Shown here: positions 28,370 through 45,970 of the stretch, piece after piece
Numbering within the stretch: position 1 is the first letter of the stretch
How the letters are laid out: each line of letters begins with the position of its first letter
NCBI GenBank assembly: GCA_963674755.2
Contig: CAXXVS010000002.1
Span: forward strand, 192,001-256,000
Origin: Desulfobacterales bacterium
Lineage (GTDB): Bacteria; Desulfobacterota; Desulfobacteria; Desulfobacterales; UBA5852
DNA length: 64,000 nt
Direction: 5' to 3'
Position numbers and translations under genes: made by a program
Notes under the pieces: generated by a model
Told to the model about the DNA's origin: nothing
What the model saw: only the letters and a program-made list of their open reading frames with translations
Database searches by the model: none

Positions 28370-29551
28370 GTGGACCGCGATTGCCAGTGCCTCAATCGCT
28401 TGAAGGCCGCCGTCGAGGCGGTCATGTTCGGTTCCCCGGACGTCCATCGCGGCCTGGCCGCCTTGCTGCAAGGTACCGCACTTCTTTATGGTGCGGCGAT
28501 GCGGTTCCGGGCCCGCCTGTATACGAATGGCTGCCTTGCCGCGCATCGGCTGCCCTGCAAAGTGGTATCGGTGGGGAACATCACCTTGGGGGGGACCGGC
28601 AAAACCCCGGCAAGCCTTTATATGGCACGGCTGATCCACGAAGCCGGCTTGCGGGTGGCGGTCGTCAGCCGTGGATACAAAGGGCGGGCGGAACATCAGG
28701 GCGGGATCGTCAGCGACGGGCATACCTTGCGGATGACTCCCGCTGACGCCGGCGATGAACCCTATTTGATGGCCCGGCATCTGTTACCCCTCGGGATACC
28801 GGTTATCGTGGGATCCGATCGCGTCCGCTCGGGACGTCTGGCGGTGGAGCGTTTTTCGACCGAAGTCCTTGTGCTTGATGACGGGTTCCAGCACATGCGA
28901 CTGAGGCGCGATCTCAACCTGGTATTGTTGGACGCCGGGCAACCCTTCGGCAACGGCCATCTGCTGCCCCGGGGGGCTTTAAGGGAGCCCCTGTCCGCCC
29001 TGGCGCGAGCCGATGCCTGCCTGTTGACACGCTGTCCGCCGACCTTTGTCGCGCGAATTCCCGACGATGGCGACGGAAGGGATGGGGCTCATTTGCCCCG
29101 CGACCGCCGGCATCCGGTTTTTCCGGCAACCCATGCGCCCTTTGCGGTGGAATGGATCGCCGACGGGCAGACCAATCCGCAGCAGAGGCTGCCGTCCCTG
29201 GATGACATGGCATCCTGTCCGGTTTTCGCTTTTTCGGGCATTGCCCGCAACGATGATTTTCAGGCTTCCCTGCGTGAGCTGGGATTCGATCTAAGGGGAT
29301 GGCGGGCGTTTGGGGATCACCACTTTTATTTCCGGGAGGATTTGAGCGCTATCGAATCCCTCGCCGTTCGGCAGGGCGCGGAGCTGATGGTCACGACGGA
29401 AAAAGACCGCGTCAAGATCGATGCGGCCTGGATCCGGCGCATGCCCCTGCTCGTGGTGGGCGTCCGAATCGACCTCGGTGCCCATGCTGCAGATTTCCGG
29501 CGGTTTGTGCTCGGCAAACTTGGGCCGGCGAGCCAATCCGGGGAGACCTGA
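28370..29551 (+). CDS. lpxK: Tetraacyldisaccharide 4'-kinase
   Basis: SVGNITLGGTGKTP, SRGY, GDEP, LDDGFQH, LLPRGALRE, DHH, TTEKD. Confidence 0.95.
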   Translation: MDRDCQCLNRLKAAVEAVMFGSPDVHRGLAALLQGTALLYGAAMRFRARLYTNGCLAAHRLPCKVVSVGNITLGGTGKTPASLYMARLIHEAGLRVAVVSRGYKGRAEHQGGIVSDGHTLRMTPADAGDEPYLMARHLLPLGIPVIVGSDRVRSGRLAVERFSTEVLVLDDGFQHMRLRRDLNLVLLDAGQPFGNGHLLPRGALREPLSALARADACLLTRCPPTFVARIPDDGDGRDGAHLPRDRRHPVFPATHAPFAVEWIADGQTNPQQRLPSLDDMASCPVFAFSGIARNDDFQASLRELGFDLRGWRAFGDHHFYFREDLSAIESLAVRQGAELMVTTEKDRVKIDAAWIRRMPLLVVGVRIDLGAHAADFRRFVLGKLGPASQSGET

Positions 29552-29754: not shown

Positions 29755-31482
29755 ATGATCGTACTCGGATTATCAGGATCCCTGACCCATGACCCTTCGG
29801 CCGCGCTTTTCGTGGACGGCCGTCTTGTGGCCGCGGCGGAGGAAGAGCGCTTTCTGCGCGACAAACACGCCAAACGCCAATGGCCTTACCATTCCGCCCG
29901 CTATTGCCTCGAGGCGGCCGGCGTCGCGCCGCACGCTATCGACGCGGTGGCCTTTCCCTTTGCGCCCTTCGGTTTCACCTATCCCGGGCGCTGGCATTTT
30001 GCCCGACGCTATTGGTACGCGCCCGATCGGGCCCTGAACGCCCTGTTCAACGGCAACCGGCTTTTCCGTCGCAACCGCAAAGCCATCCTGAATCTGATGC
30101 GTCAGCTCGCCATCGATCCTGACCGGACCCCCTTCGTGCCGGTGGCCCATCATCTCACCCATGCCAGCAGTGCCTATCATCTCAGCGGGTTTGAAGGCAA
30201 AACGGCCATTTTAGGAATCGACGGCAAGGGGGAATATGCCACAACCTTTTTCGGCTATGGTGAAAAGGGCCGCATTCATTGCCTCAAGGAATTTTACGAT
30301 CCCGATTCCCTGGGGGGGGTCTACGGCGCCATGACTCAGTATCTGGGCTTCGAAATGCTGGATGGGGAATTCAAGGTCATGGGCATGGCCCCTTACGGCG
30401 ACCCGGGAAAATACGATTTGGGACGGCTGATTCAAAGCGACGGCCGATCTTTCAGTGTCGATACCCGGCTGGTCAATACCGTCGGGCTGCGGCGCTATAA
30501 GCAGGACGGTTTGGGGTTCTACTTCAGCCCCAAACTCGTGGCATGGCTCGGTCCCAAACGGGAGGGCGACGAAATCGACGATCCCTATGTGGACTACGCC
30601 GCCAGCATGCAGAAGCTGCTGGAGGACGTGTCCCTGGAACTCATCGAGACCTATCTCGGGGATATCCTGCGGGAGACCGGCCGCCTGTGTTTCGCGGGCG
30701 GGGTGGCCTTGAACGTCAAGTTGAACCAGCGCATCATCGATCTGCCGTATGTGAAGGAGCTTTTCGTTCAGCCGGCGGCCAGCGATGCCGGCACGGCGGT
30801 GGGTGCGGCTTCCTATGTCGCCCATCAGATGGGGGATGCCATCCACAAGCAGGAGCACGTCTATCTGGGTCCCGCTTTTTCCACGGACGACTGCCGCCGG
30901 GCCTGCGAAGCGCATCCGGAAAGCCCCCTCTTCGAACAGGTCGAAGACGCGCCCCGGGCGGCGGCCGGTTTGCTGGCCGATGGGCATCCCGTGGCCTGGT
31001 TTCAGGGGCGCATGGAATTCGGCCCGCGTGCTTTGGGCAACCGCAGCATCCTGGGGGATCCCAGCCGGGCGGGTATCGCCGACCGCATCAACGCCCAGAT
31101 CAAGTACCGCGAGCGCTGGCGACCCTTCTGCCCCAGCATCCTGGACCGGGCGGCTGAAGATATTCTGCAGACCCGCCACCCGGCGCCTTACATGACCTTT
31201 GCCTTCACAGTGGCTGACCATTGGAAAAAGCGCATTCCGGAAGTGGTCCATATGGACGGTACCGCCCGCGCCCAGGTGGTGACCCGGGCCACCAACCCCC
31301 GCTACTACGCCCTGATCGAAGCATTGGAGGAGCTGCGCGGCGTTCCGGTGGTGCTCAACACATCCCTCAATCGACGGGGCGAACCCATCGTATGCACCCC
31401 CACCGATGCCCTGAACATGTTCTACGGATCCGATCTGCAATTTCTCTTTCTGGAGGATCTCCTGGTACGCAAGCGACCGTGA
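29755..31482 (+). CDS. O-carbamoyltransferase (NodU/CmcH family), similar to the Pseudomonas LPS-core carbamoyltransferase
   Basis: [66 protein letters not shown]-cluster context. Confidence 0.9.
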
Positions 31483-31506: not shown

Positions 31507-32571
31507 TCAGAACGAGCGGCCGGCGGCCAGCGCCTGGCCCAGCTTGGCCATGACCATGGCGGGGGTAATGGCGGCCATGCAGGTGGTGTTCTTGCGGGGG
31601 CAGACCTTGCGGTAGCATCCCAGGCAGTCCCCGTCGGAGCGCACGACCAGGTCACGGCAGCGGTAGGGGGCCACCCGGTCCGGATCGGTGGGACCGAAAA
31701 GGGCCACATAGGGCGTTCCCACGGCGGCGGATATGTGCCCCGGGCCGGAGTCCGGACCGGCGGCGGCGACGGCCTGGCGCAGAATGGCGACCAATTCCGT
31801 CAGGGACGTTTTTCCGGTAAGATTCAGCAACCGATCCGATTCGAAGGCAGCTGTGAGATGCCCGGCCGGGCCGGTTTGCGACCTGTCGCCCACCAGGATC
31901 ACACCATATTCCCCGCGCGCCAGGATGGCTTGGGTGAGCCCCCGATAGCCCTCATAGGTCCAGTCCTTGGATATCCAGGAAGACCCCATGACGATGACGA
32001 TGTAAGGCGCCGGCCGGCGCAACCGCAACCCGTTCGGCGGATCATCGTCACCGACGGAAGACAAGCCGAAGTCGGGGCGATCGGAAAGCGACCCTCCCAG
32101 ATAGGAGATGAATTGGAGATAATGCTCCAGTTTGGGGCGCTGCGGGCTGAAATAGGGGAGATGATGGTTGTTGAACAGCCAGTTGAATTCCTTGGCGTTG
32201 CGGGGATGGACGCCGATGCGCTGGGGGGCACCGGAAAGCAGGGAAAAGAGGCCGCTTTTGAAATGGCGTTGCATATCCAGGGTGATATCGAAGCGGCGTG
32301 CGCTCAAAGCGTGCCTGAGATCCATAACGGCCGCTGCTTTGCGGGGACGGTCGAAAACAATGACCTCATCGATCAGCGGGTGGCGGTCCACGAGGGGCTT
32401 CCAGCGGGGTTCCACAAGCCAGGTGACGGTGGCCGCGGGCCAGTTGTGTTTGATTTCACCGGGAAGGCAAAGCCCCCGCACCAGGTCTCCCAGGGCGCCC
32501 ATCAGGACAACCAGAATGGCGCTGTTGCGGGAAATCGGTGGGGGCGATGTTTGCTGTCGGATGTCGCTCAT
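31507..32571 (-). CDS. GT9 LPS heptosyltransferase (WaaC/OpsX-like)
   Basis: MGALGDL, TWLVE, DMQRHFKS, GKTSL.EL, DSGPGHIS, LFGPT. Confidence 0.88.
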   Translation of the reverse strand: MSDIRQQTSPPPISRNSAILVVLMGALGDLVRGLCLPGEIKHNWPAATVTWLVEPRWKPLVDRHPLIDEVIVFDRPRKAAAVMDLRHALSARRFDITLDMQRHFKSGLFSLLSGAPQRIGVHPRNAKEFNWLFNNHHLPYFSPQRPKLEHYLQFISYLGGSLSDRPDFGLSSVGDDDPPNGLRLRRPAPYIVIVMGSSWISKDWTYEGYRGLTQAILARGEYGVILVGDRSQTGPAGHLTAAFESDRLLNLTGKTSLTELVAILRQAVAAAGPDSGPGHISAAVGTPYVALFGPTDPDRVAPYRCRDLVVRSDGDCLGCYRKVCPRKNTTCMAAITPAMVMAKLGQALAAGRSF

Positions 32572-32643: not shown

Positions 32644-33330
32644 TCATGGACCGGCGGCCAGGGTCATGATCTGTGCCAATTCAGCCGGCAGGCCATGTTT
32701 GACGATGGCTCGTTCCCAGCGTTGGCGATAGCGTTTCTTCAGCCGGCGCCGGTTGTTGGTATAACACGCTTTGTCGAAGTCGATGATATGGGGCTCGTTC
32801 TTCCTGTCCACTAAGACATTGCCCGGATGCAGATCAGGGTGCCAGATGCCATGCGTCATCAAGATCCGGATCTGGTCCGCGACCTGGATGCGCAACCCAT
32901 TATCCAGCCTGCCATATTGCACGGTTTGGATCAAGGAGCAGTGTTCCGCCAGGGCCTCCATGATCAGCCAGCATTGCCCGCTGACCCGGCCCCGGATCGC
33001 AAACGCGATGGGCTTTGGCGCGGCAATCCCGATCCGGCGGACGGTTTCCAGCCAGCGGAATTCCCGTTCGCTCCGGCTCCGGGGCCAGTGGATATAACGA
33101 TTCCGGTTGAAGTGCCGGATCATCCCCCCCCGGGCAAATTGTTTCACCGCCACCGATCCGATGTCCTCCACCGCCACGATGGTAACGACCTGGCGGCCGG
33201 CCAGGACACCCTGAGCCTGCGCCGGCCGCTGGTCGAAGACCGTTTGCAATTGCTGAAGCTGTCGGGGGGTGAGAGGCCGACAGGCTTCCAGACGGATCCC
33301 GTGATCATCGTGGCGGTGCAAAGCGCTCAT
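32644..33330 (-). CDS. kdkA: Kdo kinase-like LPS kinase (KdkA family)
   Basis: GR..V, K.F.RGG...HFNR.RY, RS.REF, P.P, HPDLHPGNVL, IIDFDK; in the waaA operon. Confidence 0.7.
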   Translation of the reverse strand: MSALHRHDDHGIRLEACRPLTPRQLQQLQTVFDQRPAQAQGVLAGRQVVTIVAVEDIGSVAVKQFARGGMIRHFNRNRYIHWPRSRSEREFRWLETVRRIGIAAPKPIAFAIRGRVSGQCWLIMEALAEHCSLIQTVQYGRLDNGLRIQVADQIRILMTHGIWHPDLHPGNVLVDRKNEPHIIDFDKACYTNNRRRLKKRYRQRWERAIVKHGLPAELAQIMTLAAGP

Positions 33331-34340
33331 GGCAGCTCCAAAACCCTTTTGGCCGCGGCGATCACCTCTTCGGGCCGCACTTCCTCCATGCAGGCCCGGG
33401 TCCCCGTGGGGCAGGTTTGGCCTCCGTGGCGGGCGCAGGGTTTGCAGGGCAGGTCCTTTTTTTCCACGGCCATGGCCCGTGGGTTGTGCCAGGGACCGAA
33501 GCCGAAGGAAGGGCTGGTGGCGCAGAAAACCGCGACGCAGGGAATGGCAAAGGCCGATGCCATATGGAGGGCCATACTGTCGTTGCAGATCATGAGGCGG
33601 GCCTTGTGGACGATAGCCAGGGCATCTCCCAGCGATGTCCGGCCGGCCAGATCGAGGACGTCCATCTGGTCAGCCACCCGACGATTGACCTCACGGTCGT
33701 CCGGCCCGCCCAGCAGGGCCACCGCGTATCCCTGGTTTAGGAAATGGGCCGCCACCGTCCGAAAGTGCTGCCAAGACCACATTTTGGTGGGCCAGGCACT
33801 GCCCGGAACAAGCAGTGCGAGGGGCCGCTCCTCAGCCAGCAGCTGTCTGGCGGCAGGCCCGAGCCTCGCGTAAGGCGGCGGGAAGAGCCTCAGCCGGGTG
33901 TCGAAGCTGTTCAGCGGGGCTTCGCCGGTCAGGAGACTCAGGTTGCGCAGGACATCATGGTCAGTTGGCCTGCGGGTCTGCCGGCTGTGGAAGATAAAGG
34001 GCAACTTGGCATTCTGAAAGCCCGTGCGATGGGGGATGCCGCTGACAAGCAGGGTCAGGGCGGTCCGGTAGGATCGCTGCAGGGCATAGGCCCGGTCAAA
34101 GCGTCTGCGGCGCAGATCCAGACCGGTGCGGATGAGACCTGAGAGGCCGGCCGCCTGCCGGCGCTTGTCAAAGGCCAGGACGCCTTTCAGGAGAGGGTCG
34201 TGCTGCACGAGGCCGGTGCCGGCCGGGGTGGTCATCATCCAGAGCTCCGCCTCGGGGTAGAGCCGGTGGACGCCGGCAACGACCGGTGTCGACAGGATGG
34301 TATCTCCCAAATAGCTGGTTTGTAGGATCAATATGCGCAT
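33327..34340 (-). CDS. waaF: GT9 LPS heptosyltransferase (WaaF-like)
   Basis: MRILILQTSYLGD.IL, PGSAWPTK.W, NDS.ALH.A; start ATG 34340. Confidence 0.8.
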   Translation of the reverse strand: MRILILQTSYLGDTILSTPVVAGVHRLYPEAELWMMTTPAGTGLVQHDPLLKGVLAFDKRRQAAGLSGLIRTGLDLRRRRFDRAYALQRSYRTALTLLVSGIPHRTGFQNAKLPFIFHSRQTRRPTDHDVLRNLSLLTGEAPLNSFDTRLRLFPPPYARLGPAARQLLAEERPLALLVPGSAWPTKMWSWQHFRTVAAHFLNQGYAVALLGGPDDREVNRRVADQMDVLDLAGRTSLGDALAIVHKARLMICNDSMALHMASAFAIPCVAVFCATSPSFGFGPWHNPRAMAVEKKDLPCKPCARHGGQTCPTGTRACMEEVRPEEVIAAAKRVLELP

Positions 34341-34357: not shown

Positions 34358-35692
34358 TCAGCCGTTGCGGCAGCGGTGGCGCTGGTTGGGCGGTACCATC
34401 GGTCGCTGCCGGGCCAAAAGCGCCGCGATGGCGGCGGCTGAGCGGGCTGTGCCGCCCTGGTGATTCCGGAGATAGGCGTCGAAAGCTTCCCTTACCGCTT
34501 CCCGCGGTAGGGGCGATGCTACGATCTCGAGAAGGATTTCGGCGGCGTTGCGCCAATCTGCCGCTACCCGCACGAGACCATTGGCAAAAAGGTCCTCGCC
34601 GACCCAGTCAAACGTCTCCCATGAAGGGCCGATGACGGGAACAAGCCCGCAGGGCAATGGCTCCAGGAAATTTTGGCCGCCCAGAGGCGCAAGGCTGCCC
34701 CCCACGAAAGCGCCGCAGGCGGCGGCGTAGGCCTGGGACAATTCTCCGAAGACATCCCACAGGATGACGCTCCCCGGAGGGGCGGTAGCGGTTGTTCGGG
34801 ACCGCAGCTGGCAGGGGATGCCCCCGGATGCGAGGCGCGTCAGCCACGGCCCGATACGGTGCATATGGCGCGGGAAAAGGCCGATGATCAGCTCCGGTCG
34901 ATGAGCGCGCAGATGGCCGATCATCCGGCTGACGGCCTCTTCCTCCTCGCGGCGCACGGACCCCAGCACCACCAGGGCACTATCGGGCGGAATCAATTGT
35001 GCTACCAGATTGGCAGGGTCGCTTTGCAGACCGGCGCGCAGGCGGTCGAACTTCATATTGGGTACAACAGATACGCCCTCCGGGCTGTACAGGCCGGCAT
35101 AGCGGTTGGCATCGGCGGGGCTGACAGCCAGAATGCGCTCGGGCGCCAGGGCGCGCCAGAGATCGGGCCAGACCCGATAATGCCGCAGGCTCCTGGCACG
35201 CATGCGGCCATTCACAATGATGCAGGGAATCCGGCTGCATTTAAGGGTCTTCAACAAGCCCGGCCAGATCTCCGTTTCAAGCAGGACCACGAGGCGCGGC
35301 TGGATGGCGCCGACGGCGGCAGCCATCAGAGAAGGGCGGTCGAATGGGAAATAGGCCGACACGCAACGCGTACCCGTGGGGCCCCCAGGACGGTTGGCGA
35401 TGCCGGCCTCGATGATGTCCTTGCCCTGGCGGGTATTGGTGGTTATCAGGATACGATGGTCGCCGGTTGCCGCCAGATGGTCGAGCAGCATACACGCCAG
35501 GTAGGATTCGCCGGCGGAGGCCGCCTGAATCCAGATGTCGAAGGGTCCCTCCGGGAAAGGCTTTCCGATGCGTTGCGGCAATCCTTCCTTGAGGCGCTGA
35601 TTGCGGCTGAGGAGCGGGATGGCCGCTTGCCAGAGCCATTCATATAATACCAGGGCCGCTTTCACGGACCATGTGAAATCTACCGTTGCCAT
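34358..35692 (-). CDS. waaA: Kdo transferase
   Basis: W.QAASAGE, FPFD, ETEIWP, NGR, NMKFD, PRH, GEL...Y, FVGGSL...GGQNFLEP. Confidence 0.93.
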   Translation of the reverse strand: MATVDFTWSVKAALVLYEWLWQAAIPLLSRNQRLKEGLPQRIGKPFPEGPFDIWIQAASAGESYLACMLLDHLAATGDHRILITTNTRQGKDIIEAGIANRPGGPTGTRCVSAYFPFDRPSLMAAAVGAIQPRLVVLLETEIWPGLLKTLKCSRIPCIIVNGRMRARSLRHYRVWPDLWRALAPERILAVSPADANRYAGLYSPEGVSVVPNMKFDRLRAGLQSDPANLVAQLIPPDSALVVLGSVRREEEEAVSRMIGHLRAHRPELIIGLFPRHMHRIGPWLTRLASGGIPCQLRSRTTATAPPGSVILWDVFGELSQAYAAACGAFVGGSLAPLGGQNFLEPLPCGLVPVIGPSWETFDWVGEDLFANGLVRVAADWRNAAEILLEIVASPLPREAVREAFDAYLRNHQGGTARSAAAIAALLARQRPMVPPNQRHRCRNG

Positions 35693-36151: not shown

Positions 36152-36988
36152 ATGGCTGTGCAACATCGTGTTTCGGTTGGTCCTGTAACCTGTGGTTCAG
36201 ACACCTTGTTTTTGATTTCAGGGCCCTGTGTCATCGAAGATGAGTCTATCATGATGCAGACGGCGGAACGATTGAAAGAGCTGTCCCAGCGTCTGAAGCT
36301 GCCCCTGATCTTCAAGTCGTCCTTCATGAAGGACAACCGCAGTGCCATAGAGCATTTCCACGGCCCCGGGCTGGACAAGGGGTTGGCCCTGCTGGCGAAA
36401 ATCCGGGAGACCTTTGATGTCCCCATCATTACCGATGTGCATTTCCCCGAACAGATCGGGCCGACGGCCGCAGTGGCCGACGTGATCCAGATCCCCGCTT
36501 ATCTTTGCATGCAAACCGAGTTGGTGATTACAGCAGCCAGGACGGGGCGGGCCATCAACATCAAGCACGGGCAATTCCTGGCGCCCGCCAACATGATCAA
36601 GCCCGTCCAGAAAATCGAAAGCTTCGGGTATCATGACATCCTGCTGACGGAACGCGGCTATACCTTCGGCTACAATGACCTGGTGGTCGATCCCCGCAGC
36701 TTCTATGAGCTGCGCCAAATCGGCTATCCGGTCGTTTTCGACATCACCCACAGTATCCGCCGCTACGGAATCCCCAGCAAAGATCCCCGGGGCAGCAGCC
36801 GTGAGTATCTCACGACCATCGCCCGCGCCGGTGTGGCCGCCGGCGTCGACGGGGTTTTTATCGAAACCCACCCGAACCCGCCGGAAGCGTTGTGCGATGC
36901 GGCCAGCCAACTGGCGCTCGATCAGATGGAAGCATTCCTCATGCCGTTGATCGAGATTCACAACCTTGTCAAGGAACAACGCGACTAG
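36152..36988 (+). CDS. kdsA: KDO8P synthase family protein, metal-dependent type, with divergent active-site motifs
   Basis: GPCVIE, KSSF.KDNRS, TDVH, QIPA, ERG.TFGYN.LVVD, FD.THS, F.E.HP.P..A.CD; RBS aagga. Confidence 0.88.
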   Translation: MAVQHRVSVGPVTCGSDTLFLISGPCVIEDESIMMQTAERLKELSQRLKLPLIFKSSFMKDNRSAIEHFHGPGLDKGLALLAKIRETFDVPIITDVHFPEQIGPTAAVADVIQIPAYLCMQTELVITAARTGRAINIKHGQFLAPANMIKPVQKIESFGYHDILLTERGYTFGYNDLVVDPRSFYELRQIGYPVVFDITHSIRRYGIPSKDPRGSSREYLTTIARAGVAAGVDGVFIETHPNPPEALCDAASQLALDQMEAFLMPLIEIHNLVKEQRD

Positions 36989-37100: not shown

Positions 37101-38126
37101 ATGGATTTATATCTTGATTCGGCCGACTTCAAGGAAATTGAAGAGGCCCTCCGTTTGGGATTTATCAAAGGGCTGACCACAACCCCCACTTTCATGCACC
37201 GGCACGGGATTACCGATATCGATGGTGCCATTGTCAAGCTTTCCGGCATGGTGCCGGAGCTTCAGGTGGAAGCACTGGGGGAAACGCACGACGAAATCGT
37301 CTCCGAGGCCCATCGCCTGCTGGATTTACCTCTGGTCAAAGCGCCCGTCTTCAAGGTGCCCGTCTCCCTTGAAGGACTGCGGGCCTGCAAGACCCTGACG
37401 GACGAGGGCCACCGCGTCAATGTCCATCTGATCTATACCCTGAATCAGGCCTACATGGCGATGGCCGCCGGGGCGGCCTTTGTCTGTCCCCTGGCCGGGC
37501 GGCTGCAGGACCAGGGGCATGAAGCGATTCTGCTCTATGAGCAATGCGTCGATCTGGTGGATCGCTACGACTATCCCACCAAGATCATGTTTTCTTCGGT
37601 GCGCTATCCCGATCACGTCCGGCAGGCTGCCTTGGCCGGCGTGCATGTCTGCACCGTGCCCTGGGGCGTCATGAAGCGCCTCTGCGACAACGCCCTGACC
37701 AAGGTCGGCACCGAGCAGTTCTTCGAACACACCCGCTTGATGACGGTCAAGGTGAAAGACGTCATCCGGGCGAACAATCCCGTCTGCCGCCTGGCGGATA
37801 CGGTGAAGAATGCCCTGGTGAAGATGACGGCCTCGCGCATCGGCGCGGTGACCCTCGTCGACGATGCCGGACAATTGGCGGGTATTTTTACCGATGGTGA
37901 CATCCGCCGCCGTTTGCAGGAAGGCGGCGACGGAATCCTGGACCGCGCCATGGGGGAGGCGGGATTTACGGCCGATCCGGTTTCCATCAATGCCGAGGCC
38001 CTGCTCTATGAAGCGGTCAACGTCTTCAATGCGCGCCAGATCGATAATATCGTCGTCCTGGAAGACAATCTTCCCATCGGGATATTGGATATTCAGGACC
38101 TCGTCAAAATGGGACTTCTGGGATAA
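37101..38126 (+). CDS. Transaldolase/FSA-family domain fused to a KdsD-type CBS pair, occupying the kdsD position
   Basis: Residues ~1-212 follow the TalC/FSA pattern (LYLDSA, G.TT.P, FKVP Schiff-base Lys85, P..GR, SSVR). Residues ~213-341 are a CBS pair with GIFTDGDIRR and GILDIQDL..G as in KdsD/GutQ. Confidence 0.85.
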   Translation: MDLYLDSADFKEIEEALRLGFIKGLTTTPTFMHRHGITDIDGAIVKLSGMVPELQVEALGETHDEIVSEAHRLLDLPLVKAPVFKVPVSLEGLRACKTLTDEGHRVNVHLIYTLNQAYMAMAAGAAFVCPLAGRLQDQGHEAILLYEQCVDLVDRYDYPTKIMFSSVRYPDHVRQAALAGVHVCTVPWGVMKRLCDNALTKVGTEQFFEHTRLMTVKVKDVIRANNPVCRLADTVKNALVKMTASRIGAVTLVDDAGQLAGIFTDGDIRRRLQEGGDGILDRAMGEAGFTADPVSINAEALLYEAVNVFNARQIDNIVVLEDNLPIGILDIQDLVKMGLLG

Positions 38127-38131
38127 CCGCC

Positions 38132-38863
38132 ATGGCTACCGATGCTGCCGCAAACCCGCCCTGGTTGAAAATTTTTCAAGGTCTGGGCGGCCAGTTCGTA
38201 ACGCCTCCGCCCCAATTGCGGCAGAAGTTCGTCCGCATCCGGGCGTTGATCTTCGATTGGGACGGTGTCTTCAATACGGGCGAAAAGGGGGAGCAGCAGA
38301 CCAGCTCCTACACCGAGCCCGACTCCATGGGCACCAACATGCTGCGGTTCGGGCTGTGGCTGCCCCAGGAGGTCATGCCGGTGGTGGCGGTCATCACCGG
38401 GGTCGAAAACCGCTCGGCCATGCACCTGGCCCGCCGTGAACATTTCCAGGACGTTTATTTCAGCATCCGCAATAAGGGCCTGGCCGTGACACACCTTTGT
38501 TCGGCCCATGGCATCCGCCCCGATCAGGTGGCCTGTCTTTTCGACGATATCAACGATCTCGAGATGGCCCAGGCCTGCGGTGTGCGGTGCCTGGTAGCCC
38601 GCGGCGCCAGCCCCATGTTCACCCGCTATGTCGTCCGCCGGGGCTTGACGGACTATGTCACGGGGTGCGGGCCCCATCGCCATGGGGTGCGCGAGTTCTG
38701 CGAACTGGCGCTGGCGGCCATGGAACGCTACGATCAGGTCATTGCGGCCCGCATGTCCTGGAACGCGCAATACCAAGCCTATTTCACCCAGCGGCAGGCT
38801 ATTTTGACCAATTTTTACACTCAGAGGGCGGACCAGATCAAACCGGCCGCCAATATTGCCTGA
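38132..38863 (+). CDS. HAD phosphatase, long divergent KdsC-like
   Basis: IRALIFDWDGVF motif I, VAVITG motif II, NK, FDDINDL motif IV, G....GVREFCEL as in KdsC; kdsC position. Confidence 0.75.
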   Translation: MATDAAANPPWLKIFQGLGGQFVTPPPQLRQKFVRIRALIFDWDGVFNTGEKGEQQTSSYTEPDSMGTNMLRFGLWLPQEVMPVVAVITGVENRSAMHLARREHFQDVYFSIRNKGLAVTHLCSAHGIRPDQVACLFDDINDLEMAQACGVRCLVARGASPMFTRYVVRRGLTDYVTGCGPHRHGVREFCELALAAMERYDQVIAARMSWNAQYQAYFTQRQAILTNFYTQRADQIKPAANIA

Positions 38864-38915: not shown

Positions 38916-39839
38916 ATGCTGCTGAATAAACTGGCCGGCTGCATCGGCCGCGTGCCGCCTGCCACACTGGGCACCCTGGGACGTGGTATCGGCCGTATCG
39001 CTTATATGGTGGATATCCGGCATCGCCGCATTGTGCTGCAGAACTTGGCCTTTATCTATCCCCAATGGGATTTGCCCCGGCTCCGTCGGATAGCCCGACG
39101 CATTTTTCAGCATTTTGGCGTTGTCCTGCTCGAGATCCTTCAGGCCCCCTTCCTCGACCCCGAGGCGTTGGCGTCAAGGGTTCACGTGGAGGGGGTCGAA
39201 CAGCTCGCCGCCCTCATGGACAATCCGCGGGGCTGCCTCTTGTATTCGGCCCATCTAGGAAACTGGGAACTGGGATTTCTGGCGCTTTCCGCCCGGCTGA
39301 ATCGCCCGGTGACAACGGTGGCCAAACCCATCAAGCTGCAAATAGCCCATGCCTGGCTGACCGCCCTGCGCTCCCGCTTCGGGAACCGAGTGGTGTTCAA
39401 GGATGGCGCTCTGCCGTTTATGATCCAGGCCCTGCGCAAGGGGGAGACTGTCGGCGTGCTCATCGATCAGGGAGTCCGCCGCAAAGAAGCCGTAGAGATC
39501 TCTTTTTTCGGGAAGCACTCCCTGGCAACACCGGCCGCCGCCTTGCTGGGACTGCGCTGCCGGGTGCCGGTGGTGCCCTTGTTCTGTGTGCGGGGGGGCG
39601 ATGGGCGTTACCGGGTCAAGGTCTACCCGGCCGTAGCATTCGAACGCTCGGCCTCTTTGCACAGCGACATCACCGCCTTCACCCAAGAGCTGCTTCACAT
39701 CCTGGAGGATGTGATCAAGGCGTACCCCGAGCAATGGTTCTGGTTTCACAAGCGCTGGAAGCGAACCCACCCCGCGCTTTATCCCGAATATCGTGAACTG
39801 TTGCGCAAAAAACGCCTCAGGAAGGGGCTGCCTGAATGA
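38916..39839 (+). CDS. lpxL: Lipid A late acyltransferase (LpxL/HtrB family)
   Basis: SAHLGNWE, LIDQ, FFG, YPEQWFWFHKRWK. Confidence 0.9.
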   Translation: MLLNKLAGCIGRVPPATLGTLGRGIGRIAYMVDIRHRRIVLQNLAFIYPQWDLPRLRRIARRIFQHFGVVLLEILQAPFLDPEALASRVHVEGVEQLAALMDNPRGCLLYSAHLGNWELGFLALSARLNRPVTTVAKPIKLQIAHAWLTALRSRFGNRVVFKDGALPFMIQALRKGETVGVLIDQGVRRKEAVEISFFGKHSLATPAAALLGLRCRVPVVPLFCVRGGDGRYRVKVYPAVAFERSASLHSDITAFTQELLHILEDVIKAYPEQWFWFHKRWKRTHPALYPEYRELLRKKRLRKGLPE

Positions 39840-39957
39840 CCGCACCGACCGTCATGGCGAGAGAGCGGCGTGGGCGGGACAGCGACCGGATCGCGACTTT
39901 CTAGAAATCCTGCAACCACCGAATTCAATCGGCGTTATCGAAGTGGAGCTTTCCTTC

Positions 39958-41538
39958 ATGCGGTACCCTACGAAATGGCAATCCTCACATCTCGGCTGGA
40001 TCATACCCTTGGCGGTTTCCCTGCTGCTCAAGGGCTTTTTGTCCCTGCAGGATGTGGTGCTCAACTCCGATGGCGTCGTCTATTTGGAAGCCGCCCGGAT
40101 GATCGCCGAGGGCCATTTCTCCCAAAGTCTTCTTCTATACCCGATGCCGGCTTATCCACTATTGATCGCGGCCGCTCATCTCATTGTGCCCGACTGGATA
40201 CTAGCCGCCAAGCTCATTAACGTTATTGCCGCCGCGGCGATAACGCTTCCGGTCTACTGGCTTACCCAACTGTTGTTCGATCGACGGGCCGCCTTCTATG
40301 CGGCTCTGGCCGTGGCTCTGCTGCCCAAACTGAATGACATGGCGCCGGACGTGATTCGCGATCCCTGCTTTCTCCTGCTGGCTTGCGGTTCGGTGGCCTG
40401 GATGGTCGAGGCATTTGCCATGAAGCGCATCCGCGGGGTTTTGGGGGCCTTCGCCCTCGCCGGCGCCGCTCTCTTGTTCCGCATCGAAGCGATTTCCTTG
40501 TTCATGGTCTATCTCCTCTATTTGGCCGGGGTGGCATTGGTTGCAAAAGAACAGCGCCGTTTTGCTCGCAAGGCGCTGCTGGTGGTCCTGATCCCCGCGC
40601 TGCTCGGCATGGTAGGCCTGGTCGGTGTGGGAGCTACATCTGGAGGCGCCGACCGCGTCGATCAGCTGCAGGCCTTCGGCCGGAGTATTCTCGATGGTCG
40701 CTTTTTCTCCCGGTACCAGGATATTTACGCCCACCTTAAAGACAGCGAGCGTTTGTCCCCGGGGACATCAGGGGAGCTTTTCAAGCTGGCCCGGCATTAC
40801 CTGCCGCTTCTCTGCCTCGTTGGCATGCTGGAGGCGTTTTTCAAAGGACTCTTCTGGCCTAACGCCGTGCTCCTCTGGATCGCCCGCCGGAGGGTCTCAA
40901 CCGGCGGCATACCGTTGGTGCTCCTTACGATCATAATCCACAGCCTGCTAGTGTTGATTTATTTCCTGCGTATCGATTATTTGTCTTCGCGCTATCTTCT
41001 GTTTTGTGCGCTTTTGACCCTGCCTTTGGTCGGCCAGGGGGCTGTTTTGTTGGAGGGTAAGGCCCAGAGGGTGACTTGGCGCAAAACGGCGCTTGCGCTT
41101 ATCGTTCTTGTTTTTGTGGCTTTTCCGCTGTACCGCTCGGTCGTCCAGGGCTTCGGGGAGGATCGCGCCATTGCCATGACAGGCAGATGGCTGTCCCATG
41201 AATCTGAATTGCGGCGGGTGCCGTGGGCTGTCAACGACTTGCGCTACTACATTTACGCCGGCAAACCTCTCGACCTCCAGAAAGAGGAGGAGGGGGCTAT
41301 TAAAGTGGCGCGGTACCAGATTGAGAAAAACTATCGCGCGCTGGAGAAACTGGCCCGCGACGGAGGCAAAGACGTTATCATCCTGAGGAGACGCAGAAAG
41401 GATCCAAGCGGGACCGTTCACTTCGCGACCTTTCATAAAGTCAAGGCGATCGAGAGTTCGCAAAGCATCATCACCGTTTACGCACGAAACGGCCTCTTCC
41501 CAAAAGAGGCTGGTGCACACGGGGAATATTCGGATTAG
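39958..41538 (+). CDS. Polytopic GT-C glycosyltransferase (ArnT/PMT-like)
   Basis: TM1 followed by NSDGVVYL...A acidic loop, YPLLIA, RD, R.E, RY motifs, ~12 TM helices and a C-terminal soluble domain. Confidence 0.7.
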   Translation: MRYPTKWQSSHLGWIIPLAVSLLLKGFLSLQDVVLNSDGVVYLEAARMIAEGHFSQSLLLYPMPAYPLLIAAAHLIVPDWILAAKLINVIAAAAITLPVYWLTQLLFDRRAAFYAALAVALLPKLNDMAPDVIRDPCFLLLACGSVAWMVEAFAMKRIRGVLGAFALAGAALLFRIEAISLFMVYLLYLAGVALVAKEQRRFARKALLVVLIPALLGMVGLVGVGATSGGADRVDQLQAFGRSILDGRFFSRYQDIYAHLKDSERLSPGTSGELFKLARHYLPLLCLVGMLEAFFKGLFWPNAVLLWIARRRVSTGGIPLVLLTIIIHSLLVLIYFLRIDYLSSRYLLFCALLTLPLVGQGAVLLEGKAQRVTWRKTALALIVLVFVAFPLYRSVVQGFGEDRAIAMTGRWLSHESELRRVPWAVNDLRYYIYAGKPLDLQKEEEGAIKVARYQIEKNYRALEKLARDGGKDVIILRRRRKDPSGTVHFATFHKVKAIESSQSIITVYARNGLFPKEAGAHGEYSD

Positions 41539-41620
41539 ACGTTGTTTTGGGCGGGGAAAGTGCGTTGGCCTTTTTAGAGCGGCTTGATGCTGTCGTCGTA
41601 TCACTGTTGGAATGGCAGCC

Positions 41621-42319
41621 TCAAGCCTGGCTGTTGTGTTGCGCAGCAGATGCTGTAAAATAGGCCTCATAACGTTCGCGCAGCCGCCGCTCGTTAGAGG
41701 ATGGCAGCTCGGCGGAAGCGCAATAGGCGTCAATGAAAATATGCCTTGCCGGCGACAGGCAGCCGAGATCGGAATCATAGCGAAACAAATGGCGCAGGTT
41801 GCGGATGCGCAAATTTAGCGTAAGGGGGCCGCGCCGAAAACGCATATCCGCGATGTCGATCAGCCCGACTTGACTGCGGGGCGTCAGCACCACGTTGCCG
41901 AAGTGGATGGACCGGAAATAAATTCCGCTGTGATGCAGTCGTTGAAAAAATATCCCCAATTGGCTGGCCAGCTGCCGGTCGATGGCGTGATGTTCGCAGT
42001 GCTCACGTAGCGTTTGACCCTCAAGGGGGCTGTAATGGACAGCGGTCCGCTGCAGGGCGACGATTTTGAAGACCCCCTGGATTTCCACCGTCGGAATATC
42101 GGCGGTTTGAAGCCTGTGGGCATGACGCCGGAAGCGAATAGGGTAGGGAACCAGGCGTGCAGATGTCAGCAGCCGCTTGATACGAAATAATTTGAGAATG
42201 CTTTGGTCCCTGAGGCGCAGAACCTTGGGTGAAAGCTGGCCATCGACGTATTCACTCGACAAAATTTCAGCACCCTCAATGAGATCGTAGTACCGCGCCA
42301 GAGGAACCGACTGCATCAT
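41621..42319 (-). CDS. LPS kinase-like protein (Kdo/WaaP superfamily; Pseudomonas PA4998/toluene-tolerance type)
   Basis: KVLRL.D.S.LKLFR.KRLL.SA...PY..RF, Y.PL.G.TL, LH..GIYFRSIHFGNV, GLID.AD; RBS aagga upstream of 42319. Confidence 0.75.
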   Translation of the reverse strand: MMQSVPLARYYDLIEGAEILSSEYVDGQLSPKVLRLRDQSILKLFRIKRLLTSARLVPYPIRFRRHAHRLQTADIPTVEIQGVFKIVALQRTAVHYSPLEGQTLREHCEHHAIDRQLASQLGIFFQRLHHSGIYFRSIHFGNVVLTPRSQVGLIDIADMRFRRGPLTLNLRIRNLRHLFRYDSDLGCLSPARHIFIDAYCASAELPSSNERRLRERYEAYFTASAAQHNSQA

Positions 42320-42425
42320 GAATCCTTTATCGTTTGCGGTTTGCCCTCGTGTGACCGTGTGATTCATACTGCTTGGCACCGCTGTTCAAACATGAAAAGG
42401 CCGATGGGGGGTACAATTGTTGGCG

Positions 42426-43553
42426 ATGCCCAAACGCAATGTGTTGATTTTGAATCACAGCTATAAATCCCCCTTCAAAGAGCTGGATGTCCAGTACGCA
42501 AAGCTGTTTCATCCAGACCGTTTTAGGGTGACGATGGCCTATCTCACCGGCGGCGCAGACTCGGAGGAGGTCGTCTTCTCTTCCCCGTATGATACCATAT
42601 TTCTGAATTTAAGAAAAAAGGATATTCGCCGGTTTAAGGTGCGCGCCATTCGTAAGGTGCGGGCGTTGTGCGAAGAACGCAACATTACGGTCAGCATCTG
42701 TCATCGTTACAAACCGACCTATATAATGGCCTGGGTCGCGCGCTCGTGCCGGATTCCCTATCTCATTTCCGTGATGCACGATTTCCGTACCTTGAATCGA
42801 CTGTCCCACAAATTATTTGTCTATTGGCGTTTACGGCATCAATTCGTGTTTGCCGGTGTTTCGGATGCGGTGCGCGATGATATTTATCGAGATGGATGGG
42901 GATTGCGGCGGGATCAGGTTATTACCCTGCCGAATTCAATTGATTTGCCGGAGACAGAAGCCCGGCAGCTCGATCGCGAGACAGCGCGTCGCCAACTCAA
43001 CCTTCCCGAGGATGCGTTCGTCCTGGGCACCGTGGGACGTCTGCATCCTGCAAAAGACCATCTGACCCTGATAAATGCAATGGCACTGGCAGCCTGCGAC
43101 CGCCCGGATATTCGTCTTGTCATCATCGGCAATGGTCCTCTGGAAGAATCGTTGCAAGAGGAAATTCAACGCCATCGCCTCGACAACCACATCAAGCTGA
43201 CGGGTTTCATACCGGAGGCATCACGCCTGATGCGCGCCTTCGATGTCTATGTATCCTCTTCAGGCAAGGAGCCTTTTGGCATGGTGCTTCTGGAGGCAAT
43301 GGCAGCCGGCCTTCCCATTATCGCGACAGCTGTGGATGGCGTGCCTCAAGTGATGGGCGATTGCGGTTGTTTGGTCCCCGCCGGTGACGCACAAACGCTG
43401 GCTGAAGCCATTACGGCGTATTCTAAAAAGCCCTCCTCCGAATTGTTCGATTTAGGTAGGGTGAGCCGGCAAAGATTGCAGGATAATTATACAACAGAAC
43501 ATTTTCGCGACACTTTCTGGGAATTGTTTTCGGCCAGAGGCCTGTTGCCATGA
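42426..43553 (+). CDS. GT4 glycosyltransferase
   Basis: GVSDAV, N.ID, VGRLHPAKD, EPFGMVLLEAMAAG.P. Confidence 0.9.
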   Translation: MPKRNVLILNHSYKSPFKELDVQYAKLFHPDRFRVTMAYLTGGADSEEVVFSSPYDTIFLNLRKKDIRRFKVRAIRKVRALCEERNITVSICHRYKPTYIMAWVARSCRIPYLISVMHDFRTLNRLSHKLFVYWRLRHQFVFAGVSDAVRDDIYRDGWGLRRDQVITLPNSIDLPETEARQLDRETARRQLNLPEDAFVLGTVGRLHPAKDHLTLINAMALAACDRPDIRLVIIGNGPLEESLQEEIQRHRLDNHIKLTGFIPEASRLMRAFDVYVSSSGKEPFGMVLLEAMAAGLPIIATAVDGVPQVMGDCGCLVPAGDAQTLAEAITAYSKKPSSELFDLGRVSRQRLQDNYTTEHFRDTFWELFSARGLLP

Positions 43554-43660
43554 AAAGCCTGGGACGATGTGTTGAGGGGCCGCTATGTTTGTGGTAAGGG
43601 CAACATACTTGGGACATTAGCCCCGATAAGGCGTTATCCACAAAACAAGGATGGAAAGGA

Positions 43661-44203
43661 ATGGACTATTCTCTAAAAGCGTATTTCCATGCCGAGATTA
43701 ATGGCCTCGAAAAGACGTTTTCATGGATACGCGTGCTTCGCAAGGCCTTTCGGGGGCGCCATGACAATTATCTCTTCTGGTGGCGCATTGCTTCCCGTCT
43801 CCATGGCTCTAAAATCCGGTTGGTCAAATCCATCGGTAAATCCATCAATCGGCGCATAACCCGTAGACACGGGATCGATATTATGATGGGGGCAAAAATA
43901 GCGCCGGGTCTCAACCTCGGCCATATGTTGGGTGTCTGCATTACCAGCGGCCTCGTTGCCGGCAAAAACCTGAATGTGAGACAAAACGTGCAGATCGGAG
44001 CGCTTCGTAAGGGGGAGTGCAAGATCAGTATTGGCGACAATGTTTTTGTCGGCACCAATTCCTGCATTCTCGGAACCGGCTTGCACATTGGCGACAATGT
44101 GGTCATCGGTGCAATGAGTTTTGTCAGTCAAAGTATTCCCGACAATGCAACCTTCATTACGGAAAAGGTAAGCCGCATCCTGGTCAGGGAGGAGGGGCCC
44201 TGA
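43661..44203 (+). CDS. Hexapeptide-repeat O-acetyltransferase (CysE/WcaB-like)
   Basis: A.IAPGL.LGH..G, RQNV.IG, IGDNVFVG.NS, IGDNVVIGAMSFV..SIP. Confidence 0.8.
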   Translation: MDYSLKAYFHAEINGLEKTFSWIRVLRKAFRGRHDNYLFWWRIASRLHGSKIRLVKSIGKSINRRITRRHGIDIMMGAKIAPGLNLGHMLGVCITSGLVAGKNLNVRQNVQIGALRKGECKISIGDNVFVGTNSCILGTGLHIGDNVVIGAMSFVSQSIPDNATFITEKVSRILVREEGP

Positions 44204-44258
44204 TCACACGCACGCCCGGAAAGGGCCGGCGTCTGACAACCGTCCAGCGTTCAGAGAT

Positions 44259-45164
44259 ATGTCCTTAAACACGCTAAAATCCATTATCATGGTGATGCCC
44301 TATTTCGGTCAATGGCCTGAATGGATAGATCTTTTCATGATCTCGTGCCGCTGGAATGCCACGGTCAACTGGCTGTTCATAACGGATTGCGGTACCCCGG
44401 CCTGCGCGCCGGACAACGTCGAGTTCATTCAGATGTCCTATGCTGACTACCGCCAGTTCATCTCCGAGCGTCTGGGCATCCGCTTCCCCGACACATCCCC
44501 CTATAAACTCTGCGATTACAAGCCGACCTACGGTTATCTCCATGAGGATTTGGTCAGGGGATACGACTTCTTCGGGTTCGGTGACATTGACGTGATCTAC
44601 GGCAATATCCGTCATTTTTACACACCCGAAGTCCTTCGCCACAATGTCATCTCAACCCATGACAACCGTCTTTCGGGGCATTTTTGCCTGCTCCGCAACA
44701 ACGAGCGCATGCGGCAAGCCTTCCGTCGTGTTGAAAACTGGCGTATGTACATGGAGACTCCGGAGCACAGAGGATTCGACGAACACAAGTTCCGGCGGAT
44801 TGTACTGCGCCACAACAAACATCCGCGTTTCATGCGCAAAATCAGCGGTTGGCTGGATCCCTATCAACGCGGGACCTATTTTAGAGAACAATACAGCACT
44901 ATTCTGTCGCCGGTGCCATGGCACAACGGTTCACTGGACCATCCCCAGGAATGGCGATGGCGAAGAGGTCGGCTTACCAATACACGGGATGGGGAGCGCG
45001 AGTTTCTCTACCTCCATTTCATGAATTGGAAATCTTCACGCTACCTGTATAAATATCGCGGGGAGGCCGCTGCCTGGGAAGACCATGACGGGGTAGTCCC
45101 TTTCACCGTGACGCCTGATCTCGAAGGGTGGTGGATAACGCGCCGCGGCTTCCACCTGCTATGA
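44259..45164 (+). CDS. DUF6625-like putative glycosyltransferase
   Basis: PYFG.WP.W..LF..SC..N, YKLCDYKP.YG, GDIDVIYG (DxD), GHF.L.RN, FDE, YLHF. Confidence 0.7.
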   Translation: MSLNTLKSIIMVMPYFGQWPEWIDLFMISCRWNATVNWLFITDCGTPACAPDNVEFIQMSYADYRQFISERLGIRFPDTSPYKLCDYKPTYGYLHEDLVRGYDFFGFGDIDVIYGNIRHFYTPEVLRHNVISTHDNRLSGHFCLLRNNERMRQAFRRVENWRMYMETPEHRGFDEHKFRRIVLRHNKHPRFMRKISGWLDPYQRGTYFREQYSTILSPVPWHNGSLDHPQEWRWRRGRLTNTRDGEREFLYLHFMNWKSSRYLYKYRGEAAAWEDHDGVVPFTVTPDLEGWWITRRGFHLL

Positions 45165-45229
45165 AGAATGCGGCCGGTTCCCGGATCCGCTTGGAGCCCG
45201 TCCGGTTAATTTGAAAAACAAGGAAATTC

Positions 45230-45919
45230 ATGATGTCTTTCTTCAAGAAATTTCGCGCTACCGCGCCCAACGACATTCGCGCCGAACGTTTTATCCAAAG
45301 CCTTTATTCTGAAACACATGTCGATTATCCCAGCGTCAAACATAGTCTCGACTGGTCGACCAAGAGAAGGCATCTCGACTTTCTCCATAATTTTGTTAAC
45401 GCTTTAAAACCCAAGGTCATTATTGAGACAGGCACCTTTGAAGGCCACGGAACCTATGCAATGGCGGCTGCGGCCCATGCGAACGACAATCACGCGCGAA
45501 TATTTACCATCGACTACGATGGCGATCCTATTCAAGATGCAAAAGGCTCGGTAAGCCAGGAGCAATGGTTGGCGCTTAAGCATATTCGTCAAAGCCACTT
45601 GGAAACCATAAAGAAAAAATTCCCGAATTGCATGGTGACCTTCGTGGAAGGTGATTCTCGCGAAGTGCTGCCGGTGCTGTTGGATACGATTGATCAATGG
45701 GATTTTTGGTATCAGGACTCCATGCATTTTGCCGAGGGCATACAGCAGGAATGGGAAATTATGGAGGCGAAAGCCGCCGTGAATGCCACCATTATATTTG
45801 ACGATATCAGTAAGAAAAATCGATTCAGTCGCTGGTTTAAGGCCAACTATAAACGCTCGTGGCGTTATGCACCACGTCGGGATTTTGGCCACAAACAGTG
45901 TTTGGCGCAAAAAAAATAG
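45230..45919 (+). CDS. Class I SAM-dependent methyltransferase (Methyltransf_24-like)
   Basis: IIETGTFEG, TID, VEGDS..VL, QDS.H, IIFDD. Confidence 0.8.
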   Translation: MMSFFKKFRATAPNDIRAERFIQSLYSETHVDYPSVKHSLDWSTKRRHLDFLHNFVNALKPKVIIETGTFEGHGTYAMAAAAHANDNHARIFTIDYDGDPIQDAKGSVSQEQWLALKHIRQSHLETIKKKFPNCMVTFVEGDSREVLPVLLDTIDQWDFWYQDSMHFAEGIQQEWEIMEAKAAVNATIIFDDISKKNRFSRWFKANYKRSWRYAPRRDFGHKQCLAQKK

Positions 45920-45970
45920 AAATATTGTATAGCGATTGGCCTCAATTCCGCGGCCTTACCCTGCCAAGTG

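Follow-up and report, generated by a model that had tools for sequence, protein, structure and literature searches.

A gene labelled 'transaldolase' by automatic annotations, located among LPS genes in a 64,000-nucleotide stretch of a Desulfobacterales genome (hereafter, the window), raises the question of how its host supplies arabinose 5-phosphate (A5P) for Kdo synthesis. To our knowledge, A5P supply for this pathway is regarded as the job of SIS-domain isomerases only. The initial annotation of the locus had described the gene product, referred to here as TAL-CBS, as a KdsD in which the catalytic domain was exchanged for a transaldolase-type barrel. Judged from its sequence, TAL-CBS appears to be a variant of the known Kdo pathway, likely with new chemistry.

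Architecture and Distribution of TAL-CBS

The TAL-CBS gene starts with an ATG codon preceded by a ribosome-binding site of the AAGGA type, and its translation contains the previously quoted motifs VKDVI, GIFTDGDIRR and GILDIQDLVKMGLL. Pfam searches assigned TAL_FSA (PF00923) to residues 3–211 (E 7.5e-32, 111 bits versus a cut-off of 27) and two CBS stretches to the C-terminal part (E 5.3e-15), and thus recovered the predicted architecture. Scores for curated NCBIfam models were below the cut-offs, namely 152 bits for TIGR00875 on residues 1–209 (cut-off 246) and 83 bits for the FSA model NF009296 (cut-off 306). Moreover, the KpsF/GutQ model TIGR00393 and the KdsD model NF008141 matched exclusively at profile positions 153–265 and 200–327, respectively, and no PF01380 match was obtained in TAL-CBS using Pfam. 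Since both models match at their later positions only, the SIS half is absent, as had been noted initially. KdsD itself consists of a SIS domain and two CBS domains (accessible part of PMC10448790). In the AlphaFold model of TAL-CBS (61-sequence alignment; mean pLDDT 91.9, pTM 0.64), the barrel superposes on short transaldolases at approximately 2 Å (Z 28.7).

Among 6927 candidates, 3886 clusters were assigned to the family at E 1e-60 or better, and both domains were present in all of the 120 best matches, which rules out an assembly artefact or a chance fusion. Roughly a sixth of the sampled Bacteroidia are carriers, and further ones were found scattered among Desulfobacterota, Gammaproteobacteria, Leptospiraceae and viruses; cultured carriers exist, among them Rapidithrix thailandica JCM 23209 (L065) and Labilibacter marinus Y11 (L086). 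Within the accessible open-access literature, no account of a TAL-CBS fusion or of a non-SIS source of A5P was found. A paper retrieved in this context (PMC13326640) deals, in its accessible part, with isomerases of the ordinary type from phages and has no bearing on TAL-CBS.

Genomic Context and Host Genome

The TAL-CBS gene is part of a three-gene cassette comprising a variant KDO8P synthase (KdsA*) and a KdsC-like phosphatase (Table 1). A promoter scan was uninformative, with two sites versus 1.6 expected, and terminator-like matches were also present.

Table 1. Coordinates of the features discussed; positions refer to the window unless a locus (L) or a contig (C) is named.
Feature	Coordinates	Strand	Description and evidence
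LpxK	28370..29551	+	Pfam
Carbamoyltransferase gene	29755-31482		Between lpxK and the heptosyltransferase genes
Two GT9 heptosyltransferases	31507-32571, 33327-34337	-	Pfam
Kdo/WaaP-family kinase	32644-33330	-	Pfam
WaaA Kdo transferase	34358..35692	-	PF04413; sole copy of the genome
KdsA* (variant KDO8P synthase)	36152..36988	+	278 aa; KDNRS, PAYLCM, NIKHGQF, HSIRRYGIPS; NF003543 337 bits versus cut-off 242
TAL-CBS	37101..38126	+	341 aa; remodelled TalC-type barrel and KdsD-type CBS pair; Pfam, NCBIfam, structure
TAL-CBS, barrel	37101..37733	+	Residues 1-211; alignment to 3s0c, conservation in 194 family sequences
TAL-CBS, codons of K85, H109, C129, L131	37353-37355, 37425-37427, 37485-37487, 37491-37493	+	
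TAL-CBS, CBS pair	37734..38123	+	Residues 212-341; GxFTDGDxRR invariant; likely regulatory
Long KdsC-like HAD phosphatase	38132..38863	+	243 aa; 5 bases past TAL-CBS; NF007019 E 1.1e-11, below cut-off
LpxL-family lipid A acyltransferase	38916..39839	+	Profile matches
Downstream LPS-related run	39793-47461		
Region of lower GC	42001-46000		GC 0.51-0.52
kdsB and GlmS-like SIS protein, host genome (G000)	C3:2601828-2606359		kdsB directly upstream
Second, longer GlmS-like frame, host genome	C3 near 2034457		
Third-cassette loci	L133:877-3351, L135, L136, L138, L154-L156, L182-L211		
TAL-CBS lacking the catalytic lysine	L140:6749-7756, L141:6889-7890, L142:6738-7745		CBS motif intact; likewise P0138, P0155, P0167, P0189
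CBS-less remodelled barrel, viral contigs	L212:4001-5385, L213:4001-5373, L214:4001-4642		213 aa; all key residues
kdnA-kdnB-kdsA*-TAL-CBS-kdsC*-kdsB run (G241)	L146:3498-9122		1.3-Mb genome

The host genome (97.4% complete, three contigs) encodes lipid A, WaaA, KdsB-like and heptosyltransferase functions, a single KdsA (the other four PF00793 matches bear the KPRT motif) and a single KdsC-like protein. No KdsD was detected in this genome, where all TIGR00393 matches were CBS-only except a weak GlmS-like one. The four SIS matches, read by eye, represent one RpiR-like, two GlmS-like and one GmhA-like protein, with no SIS-only isomerase among them, and a hidden isomerase of this kind was found neither in the host genome nor in five other carriers. 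Two further transaldolases are encoded by the host, and an ordinary TalC exists alongside TAL-CBS in the host genome and in five of five others. One GlmS-like SIS protein of the host, comprising 1256 aa, is encoded directly downstream of kdsB, and a second, longer frame of this type is located on the same contig.

In relatives, kdsD is often located beside pfk, and kdsA-kdsC is often flanked by an M23 peptidase gene and lptC. Both slots are empty in the host, indicating that the cassette of three genes took the place of the native ones. The earlier proposal of a non-orthologous replacement of KdsD with retention of a KdsD-type tail is therefore upheld with regard to the absence of KdsD and the affinities of the CBS pair, but not as an in-place exchange: a swap within the host's own kdsD is ruled out by the empty ancestral slots together with the grouping of the tail away from the KdsD of the host order. 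The variant nature of the neighbouring KdsA and KdsC had been missed.

Further genes of the region were noted. The carbamoyltransferase is possibly involved in LPS core modification, and relatives possess partial copies of its gene in the equivalent position (87–93% identical). The downstream run contains a gene for a PMT_2 membrane glycosyltransferase, and inspection by eye suggested two ORFs resembling kinases along with one each for a glycosyltransferase, an acetyltransferase and a methyltransferase; the lower GC content was recorded within this run.

Affiliation of the CBS Pair

Among solved structures, the one closest to the tail, by sequence as well as by fold, is the CBS pair of arabinose-5-phosphate isomerase 4o9k (E 4e-17; Z 18.5, rmsd 2.0 Å over 126 residues), the next CBS entry reaching Z 16.3. 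When scored with a profile built from the CBS pairs of the family, KdsD tails reached 42–81 bits, IMPDH reached 34–46 bits and the remaining CBS pairs stayed lower. Among 48 mid-length relatives, drawn from the 150 best representatives after short fragments and long multi-CBS proteins had been left out, 10 were TAL+CBS, 34 SIS+CBS and three CBS only, so that SIS+CBS proteins account for 34 of the 38 non-TAL members; the last one (P0216) represents a GTP cyclohydrolase II joined to a related CBS pair. In a quick CBS tree (73 rows, 131 columns, with a long branch and few outgroups), TAL-CBS tails formed a single clade (support 100) nested among mostly Bacteroidota and gammaproteobacterial KdsD tails (support 86) and separate from the KdsD of the host order (support 95). 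Profile, tree and structure consequently agree with the earlier assignment of a C-terminal CBS pair of the KdsD/GutQ type.

Co-occurrence with KdsA, KdsA* and KdsD

Across 79 related loci from several phyla, KdsA was encoded in 65, in 64 of them directly upstream of TAL-CBS, and a KdsC-like gene in 49. Where at least 1.2 kb of upstream sequence was available, KdsA was found in 60 of 67 loci, all copies being at least 63% identical to that of the window. TAL-CBS was present in seven of 161 genomes of the host's own order (four genera), with KdsD in none of these versus 141 of the 154 non-carriers; similarly, KdsD was found in 0 of 33 Bacteroidia with intact TAL-CBS versus 123 of the 168 others, counts in which the samples share a few genomes, related genomes do not represent independent cases, and the majority of carriers are incomplete MAGs. 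Tallied by hand, the 201 Bacteroidia comprise 119 genomes with ordinary KdsA and KdsD (including the unpublished genomes G294 and G366), 33 with KdsA* and intact TAL-CBS lacking KdsD, 40 without KdsA featuring the third cassette described below, three with the third cassette and a degenerate TAL-CBS, two with ordinary KdsA and the third cassette, two with KdsD only, one with a partial KdsA* at a contig end and one with nothing.

Among 50 carriers selected from the 79 loci, 11 possess KdsD, and exactly the same 11 possess a second KdsA of the ordinary type. Neither intact TAL-CBS with ordinary KdsA only nor KdsD with KdsA* only was observed among the bacterial genomes examined. Counter to strict pairing, two genomes (G325, G410) encode an extra ordinary-type KdsA and no KdsD was found in them. 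Borderline KdsA matches in G084 (52%), G357 and G370 were rejected as KdsA* and represent ordinary KdsA.

In Woeseiaceae-like Gammaproteobacteria (L035, L041-L043, L048, L049 and others), two WaaA paralogues flank the cassette, and several of these genomes retain ordinary kdsA and kdsD elsewhere. Furthermore, KdnB-like genes adjoin the cassette in 10 of the fetched loci and KdnA-like genes in nine; the KdnB-like copy of L146 matches 5k8c at E 1e-109. KdnB is the Kdo 8-oxidase, and the predicted functions of these neighbours fit an eight-carbon product. The genome harbouring L146 encodes kdnA, kdnB, the cassette and kdsB in one run, in addition to an ordinary TalC.

Features of the Partner KdsA*

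KdsA* passes the curated scores for KdsA (TIGR01362 327 versus 314; NF003543, Table 1). The KANRS, PAFLxR and HSxQ motifs, which we take to mediate aldose binding, were not found in it; KDNRS, PAYLCM and HSIR occur instead. The residues D61, M120, H139 and R203 are present in 63 of 63 KdsA* sequences, whereas the 10 ordinary copies, originating from 10 of the 11 genomes with both types, uniformly contain A, R, K and Q (Aquifex positions A47, R106, K125 and Q188). Of these changes, A47D, R106M and Q188R are located near the aldose site. KdsA* forms a separate clade (FastTree 99; 70 rows, the window's copy being included twice), the deepest member of which retains D, M and R only.

Active Site of the Barrel

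In an alignment to the transaldolase of T. acidophilum (3s0c), the barrel keeps D6, E57, K85, N107, R134, S166 and R168 (D6, E60, K86, N108, R135, S167 and R169 in T. acidophilum), whereas N28, T110, S130, F132 and D211 are replaced by T28, H109, C129, L131 and H210. Each of these residues occurs in at least 193 of 194 family sequences, a set that is partly redundant, and L131 in all 194; the catalytic lysine and the phosphate site are near-invariant. The Schiff-base lysine on strand 4 and the phosphate site typical of the TAL/FSA family are accordingly present, and Lys85, the previously proposed Schiff-base candidate, is the equivalent of transaldolase K86. The donor/hydroxyl pocket of TalC (Asn28, Asn108, Thr110, Ser130) was not found in TAL-CBS, which features T28, H109 and C129. 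A deep-branching relative (P0219) retains N28 and D210 and already possesses H109, C129 and L131, suggesting that the central alteration concerns the donor pocket.

With respect to reaction type, the Glu60 equivalent of transaldolases is present and Phe132 is replaced by Leu. The FSA switch (Tyr at 131/178 and Gln for Glu) was not found, TAL-CBS containing L131 and E57. E. coli FSA presumably carries a Tyr131-type residue and Gln at position 60. For this comparison, FSA A129/TalB S176 and F178 were assumed to map to S130 and F132, and the roles of other transaldolase residues were assumed likewise. PDB titles support K86 and the E60Q/F132Y switch in transaldolase (4xz9 for the switch), and in the accessible part of PMC3962226, the aldolase switch is given as TalB F178Y, with the donor site at FSA A129/TalB S176. 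By sequence, the short transaldolase 1vpx is a much closer match to TAL-CBS (E 5.6e-35) than E. coli FSA is (1l6w, E 4.7e-14); of the earlier designation as a TalC/FSA-like barrel, the fold stands and the proximity to FSA does not.

Degenerate and CBS-Less Forms

In three Bacteroidia without KdsA (G305, G336, G390), the barrel carries K85R and no longer possesses D6, H109 and C129, whereas the tail is kept. Members lacking the catalytic lysine have an intact CBS motif (Table 1), and the three genomes examined among them contain the third cassette and no KdsA. Conversely, the tail is absent and the key barrel residues are present in 53 clusters of approximately 213 aa and in three viral contigs, in two of which the barrel gene overlaps the start of a kdsA whose KANRT and HSTQ motifs are of the ordinary type. 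The viral KdsA is divergent (34–39% to both KdsA types, R106K). Dead barrels in the absence of KdsA and tail-less barrels with key residues suggest that catalysis depends on the presence of a partner KdsA but does not require the tail.

The Third Cassette

A third cassette was recognized that encodes a barrel of the RPE family, to which a CBS tail is attached in most cases, together with a DAH7PS-like synthase of 333 aa bearing a KPRT motif and a KdsC-like phosphatase. Its synthase is present in 43 of 46 KdsA-less Bacteroidia, and the RPE gene adjoins the synthase gene in all 33 loci viewed. From the predicted functions, the cassette may epimerize erythrose 4-phosphate and produce a seven-carbon Kdo analogue.

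Proposed Role of TAL-CBS

Based on genome interpretation, TAL-CBS probably supplies A5P to the adjacent KdsA* in place of KdsD. This role is supported by the lack of KdsD in a genome that nevertheless encodes the Kdo/lipid A pathway, by the loss of K85, D6, H109 and C129 in the three carriers without KdsA, and by the parallel cassette, in which the product of the first gene is an epimerase barrel of the RPE family joined to a CBS tail. A5P as the product is further favoured by the pairing of viral barrels with a KdsA of ordinary motifs. The strict pairing of TAL-CBS with KdsA* counts against it, as interchangeable parts should mix.

This last point leads to the alternative that the cassette produces another aldose phosphate for KdsA*, and that the LPS contains a stereoisomer or homologue of Kdo instead. 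Such an outcome is rather unlikely, although the first enzyme and the synthase type pair all-or-none, the four characteristic KdsA* residues occur in none of the 10 ordinary copies, genomes with both pathways often encode two WaaA paralogues around the cassette, and the third system likewise changes both first enzyme and synthase. It is opposed by the KANRT/HSTQ motifs of the viral KdsA, by Kdo8N genes next to the cassette and by the extra ordinary-type KdsA in G325 and G410 without detected KdsD. Moreover, K-x-N-R-S and the long loop are retained in KdsA*, its scores exceed the KdsA cut-offs, and three of its changes could reflect an arginine shifted between positions.

Possible Reaction Mechanisms

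Regarding the chemistry, we tentatively favour a 2-epimerase that would interconvert ribose 5-phosphate (R5P) and A5P via a Schiff base on Lys85. In stereochemistry, A5P corresponds to carbons 2–6 of fructose 6-phosphate, and only the configuration at C2 sets it apart from R5P. The unchanged lysine-to-phosphate span and the rebuilt C1 pocket fit an aldopentose substrate, which is why this reaction is preferred. A5P is reportedly bound by ordinary transaldolase as an inert Schiff base (attributed to Light and Anderson, 2014), and its turnover would consequently depend on the new residues. In the proposed sequence, the aldehyde of R5P would form an imine with Lys85 while R134, S166 and R168 grip the phosphate, as for C2 and P6 of fructose 6-phosphate. 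His109, Cys129 and Leu131 would occupy and re-tool the pocket of the ketose C1 hydroxyl, a group that is missing in an aldose. The C2 proton could then be taken off one face and put back on the other (Asp6 versus Glu57/His109) to give A5P, from which KdsA*, the KdsC-like phosphatase, KdsB and WaaA would make and attach Kdo. The CBS pair may act as a brake by binding CMP-Kdo, which we take to be the ligand of KdsD CBS pairs (4o9k/3k2v). No gene was tied to a Schiff-base pentose-phosphate 2-epimerase activity in the accessible open-access literature.

The same role could be filled by a transaldolase acting on octulose 8-phosphate, which we consider unlikely. The kept Glu60 equivalent and the lack of Tyr at 131 form a transaldolase pattern, octulose carbons 4–8 should have the configuration of A5P, and plant transketolases are reported to make this octulose from G6P and F6P (accessible part of PMC5854111). 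However, the C1-hydroxyl donor pocket needed for this route is precisely what changed (S130C, T110H), and evidence for octulose routes is called limited in the accessible part of PMC4470864. Transketolase was found in 60 of 61 carriers, as the route demands, but it is near-universal and its presence discriminates nothing; RpiB, found in 50 of 61, does not separate the mechanisms either.

A KdsD-like isomerization of Ru5P to A5P via an enediolate would be the simplest drop-in for KdsD; Cys129, His109 or Glu57 would serve as the base, and the carbonyl would be polarized by Lys85. The near-invariant Cys/His/Glu/Lys/Asn set resembles RpiB and triose-phosphate isomerase, for which comparable catalytic residue sets are known. 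We nevertheless regard this reaction as quite unlikely, because the lysine-phosphate distance suits an aldopentose 5-phosphate or a ketohexose 6-phosphate, Ru5P being one carbon short, and because a ketose imine tautomerized in this manner would be expected to end in a dead-end amino-aldose.

The initial annotation had proposed an A5P aldolase/epimerase; the epimerase persists as one option, whereas the analogy to FSA is not supported, given Glu at the position of TacTAL Glu60, Leu instead of Tyr at Phe132, and His109 and Cys129 in place of the transaldolase Thr and Ser. An FSA-like condensation of glycolaldehyde and glyceraldehyde 3-phosphate is accordingly very improbable, even though E. coli FsaA cleaves A5P (KM 0.65 mM, kcat 3.6/s; accessible part of PMC6900487) and forms it in an engineered pathway (accessible part of PMC13550131), and His109 could replace the aldolase Tyr. 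The switch position lacks Tyr (compare TalB F178Y, accessible part of PMC3962226), the invariant L131 occupying it; the barrel is far nearer to TalC; and no glycolaldehyde source was found among the recurring neighbour genes. Least probable of all, TAL-CBS would be a transaldolase with a housekeeping function or a sensor without catalysis that is merely located in the operon, as suggested by the automatic annotation and the catalytically dead forms; ordinary TalC is kept in parallel, dead forms were seen only where KdsA is missing, and KdsD is excluded in the carriers of the host order and in the intact carriers among Bacteroidia.

Wider Implications

A broader interpretation, to which we assign somewhat less than even chances, places the transaldolase scaffold, as a Schiff-base pentose-phosphate 2-epimerase, at the head of one of three mutually exclusive ulosonic-acid cassettes (KdsD with KdsA, TAL-CBS with KdsA*, and RPE-CBS with the DAH7PS-like synthase) that together cover 195 of the 201 Bacteroidia; the two non-standard cassettes would possibly provide a non-Kdo sugar at the LPS base. 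If TAL-CBS has the proposed role, a second, unrelated enzyme fills a pathway hole masked by the annotation 'transaldolase'; new chemistry would have arisen on a scaffold much used in biocatalysis, and a feedback domain would have been regrafted onto different catalysts. Should the product not be Kdo, assumptions on the conserved LPS core would change.

Comparison with Known Systems

Compared to KdsA of Aquifex (1fwn) and others, KdsA* keeps the metal and PEP residues C11, K41, K46, D81, H83, K124, R154, H185, E222 and D233 as well as N48-R49-S50. It differs from the Aquifex enzyme by A47D, F103Y, R106M, K125H and Q188R and by a loop rebuilt as RYGIPSxDP. Short TalC-type transaldolases (T. maritima 1vpx, B. 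subtilis 3r8r, T. thermophilus 1wx0, T. acidophilum 3s0c) share the fold and the seven kept active-site residues with TAL-CBS, whereas T110H, S130C, F132L and usually N28T and D211H, the CBS tail, the LPS context and a score below the TIGR00875 cut-off set the latter apart. E. coli FsaA (1l6w) has the family and the Schiff-base lysine in common with TAL-CBS and turns over A5P in vitro (PMC6900487, accessible part); TAL-CBS differs in lacking the Tyr131-type residue, in Glu instead of Gln at position 60 and in the weaker similarity noted above. Finally, KdsD/GutQ/KpsF proteins (SIS and CBS pair; TIGR00393; 4o9k, 3fna, 3k2v) resemble TAL-CBS in the CBS pair, in the place between kdsA and kdsC and likely in the product, whereas TAL-CBS has no SIS domain and its catalytic barrel is unrelated to theirs.
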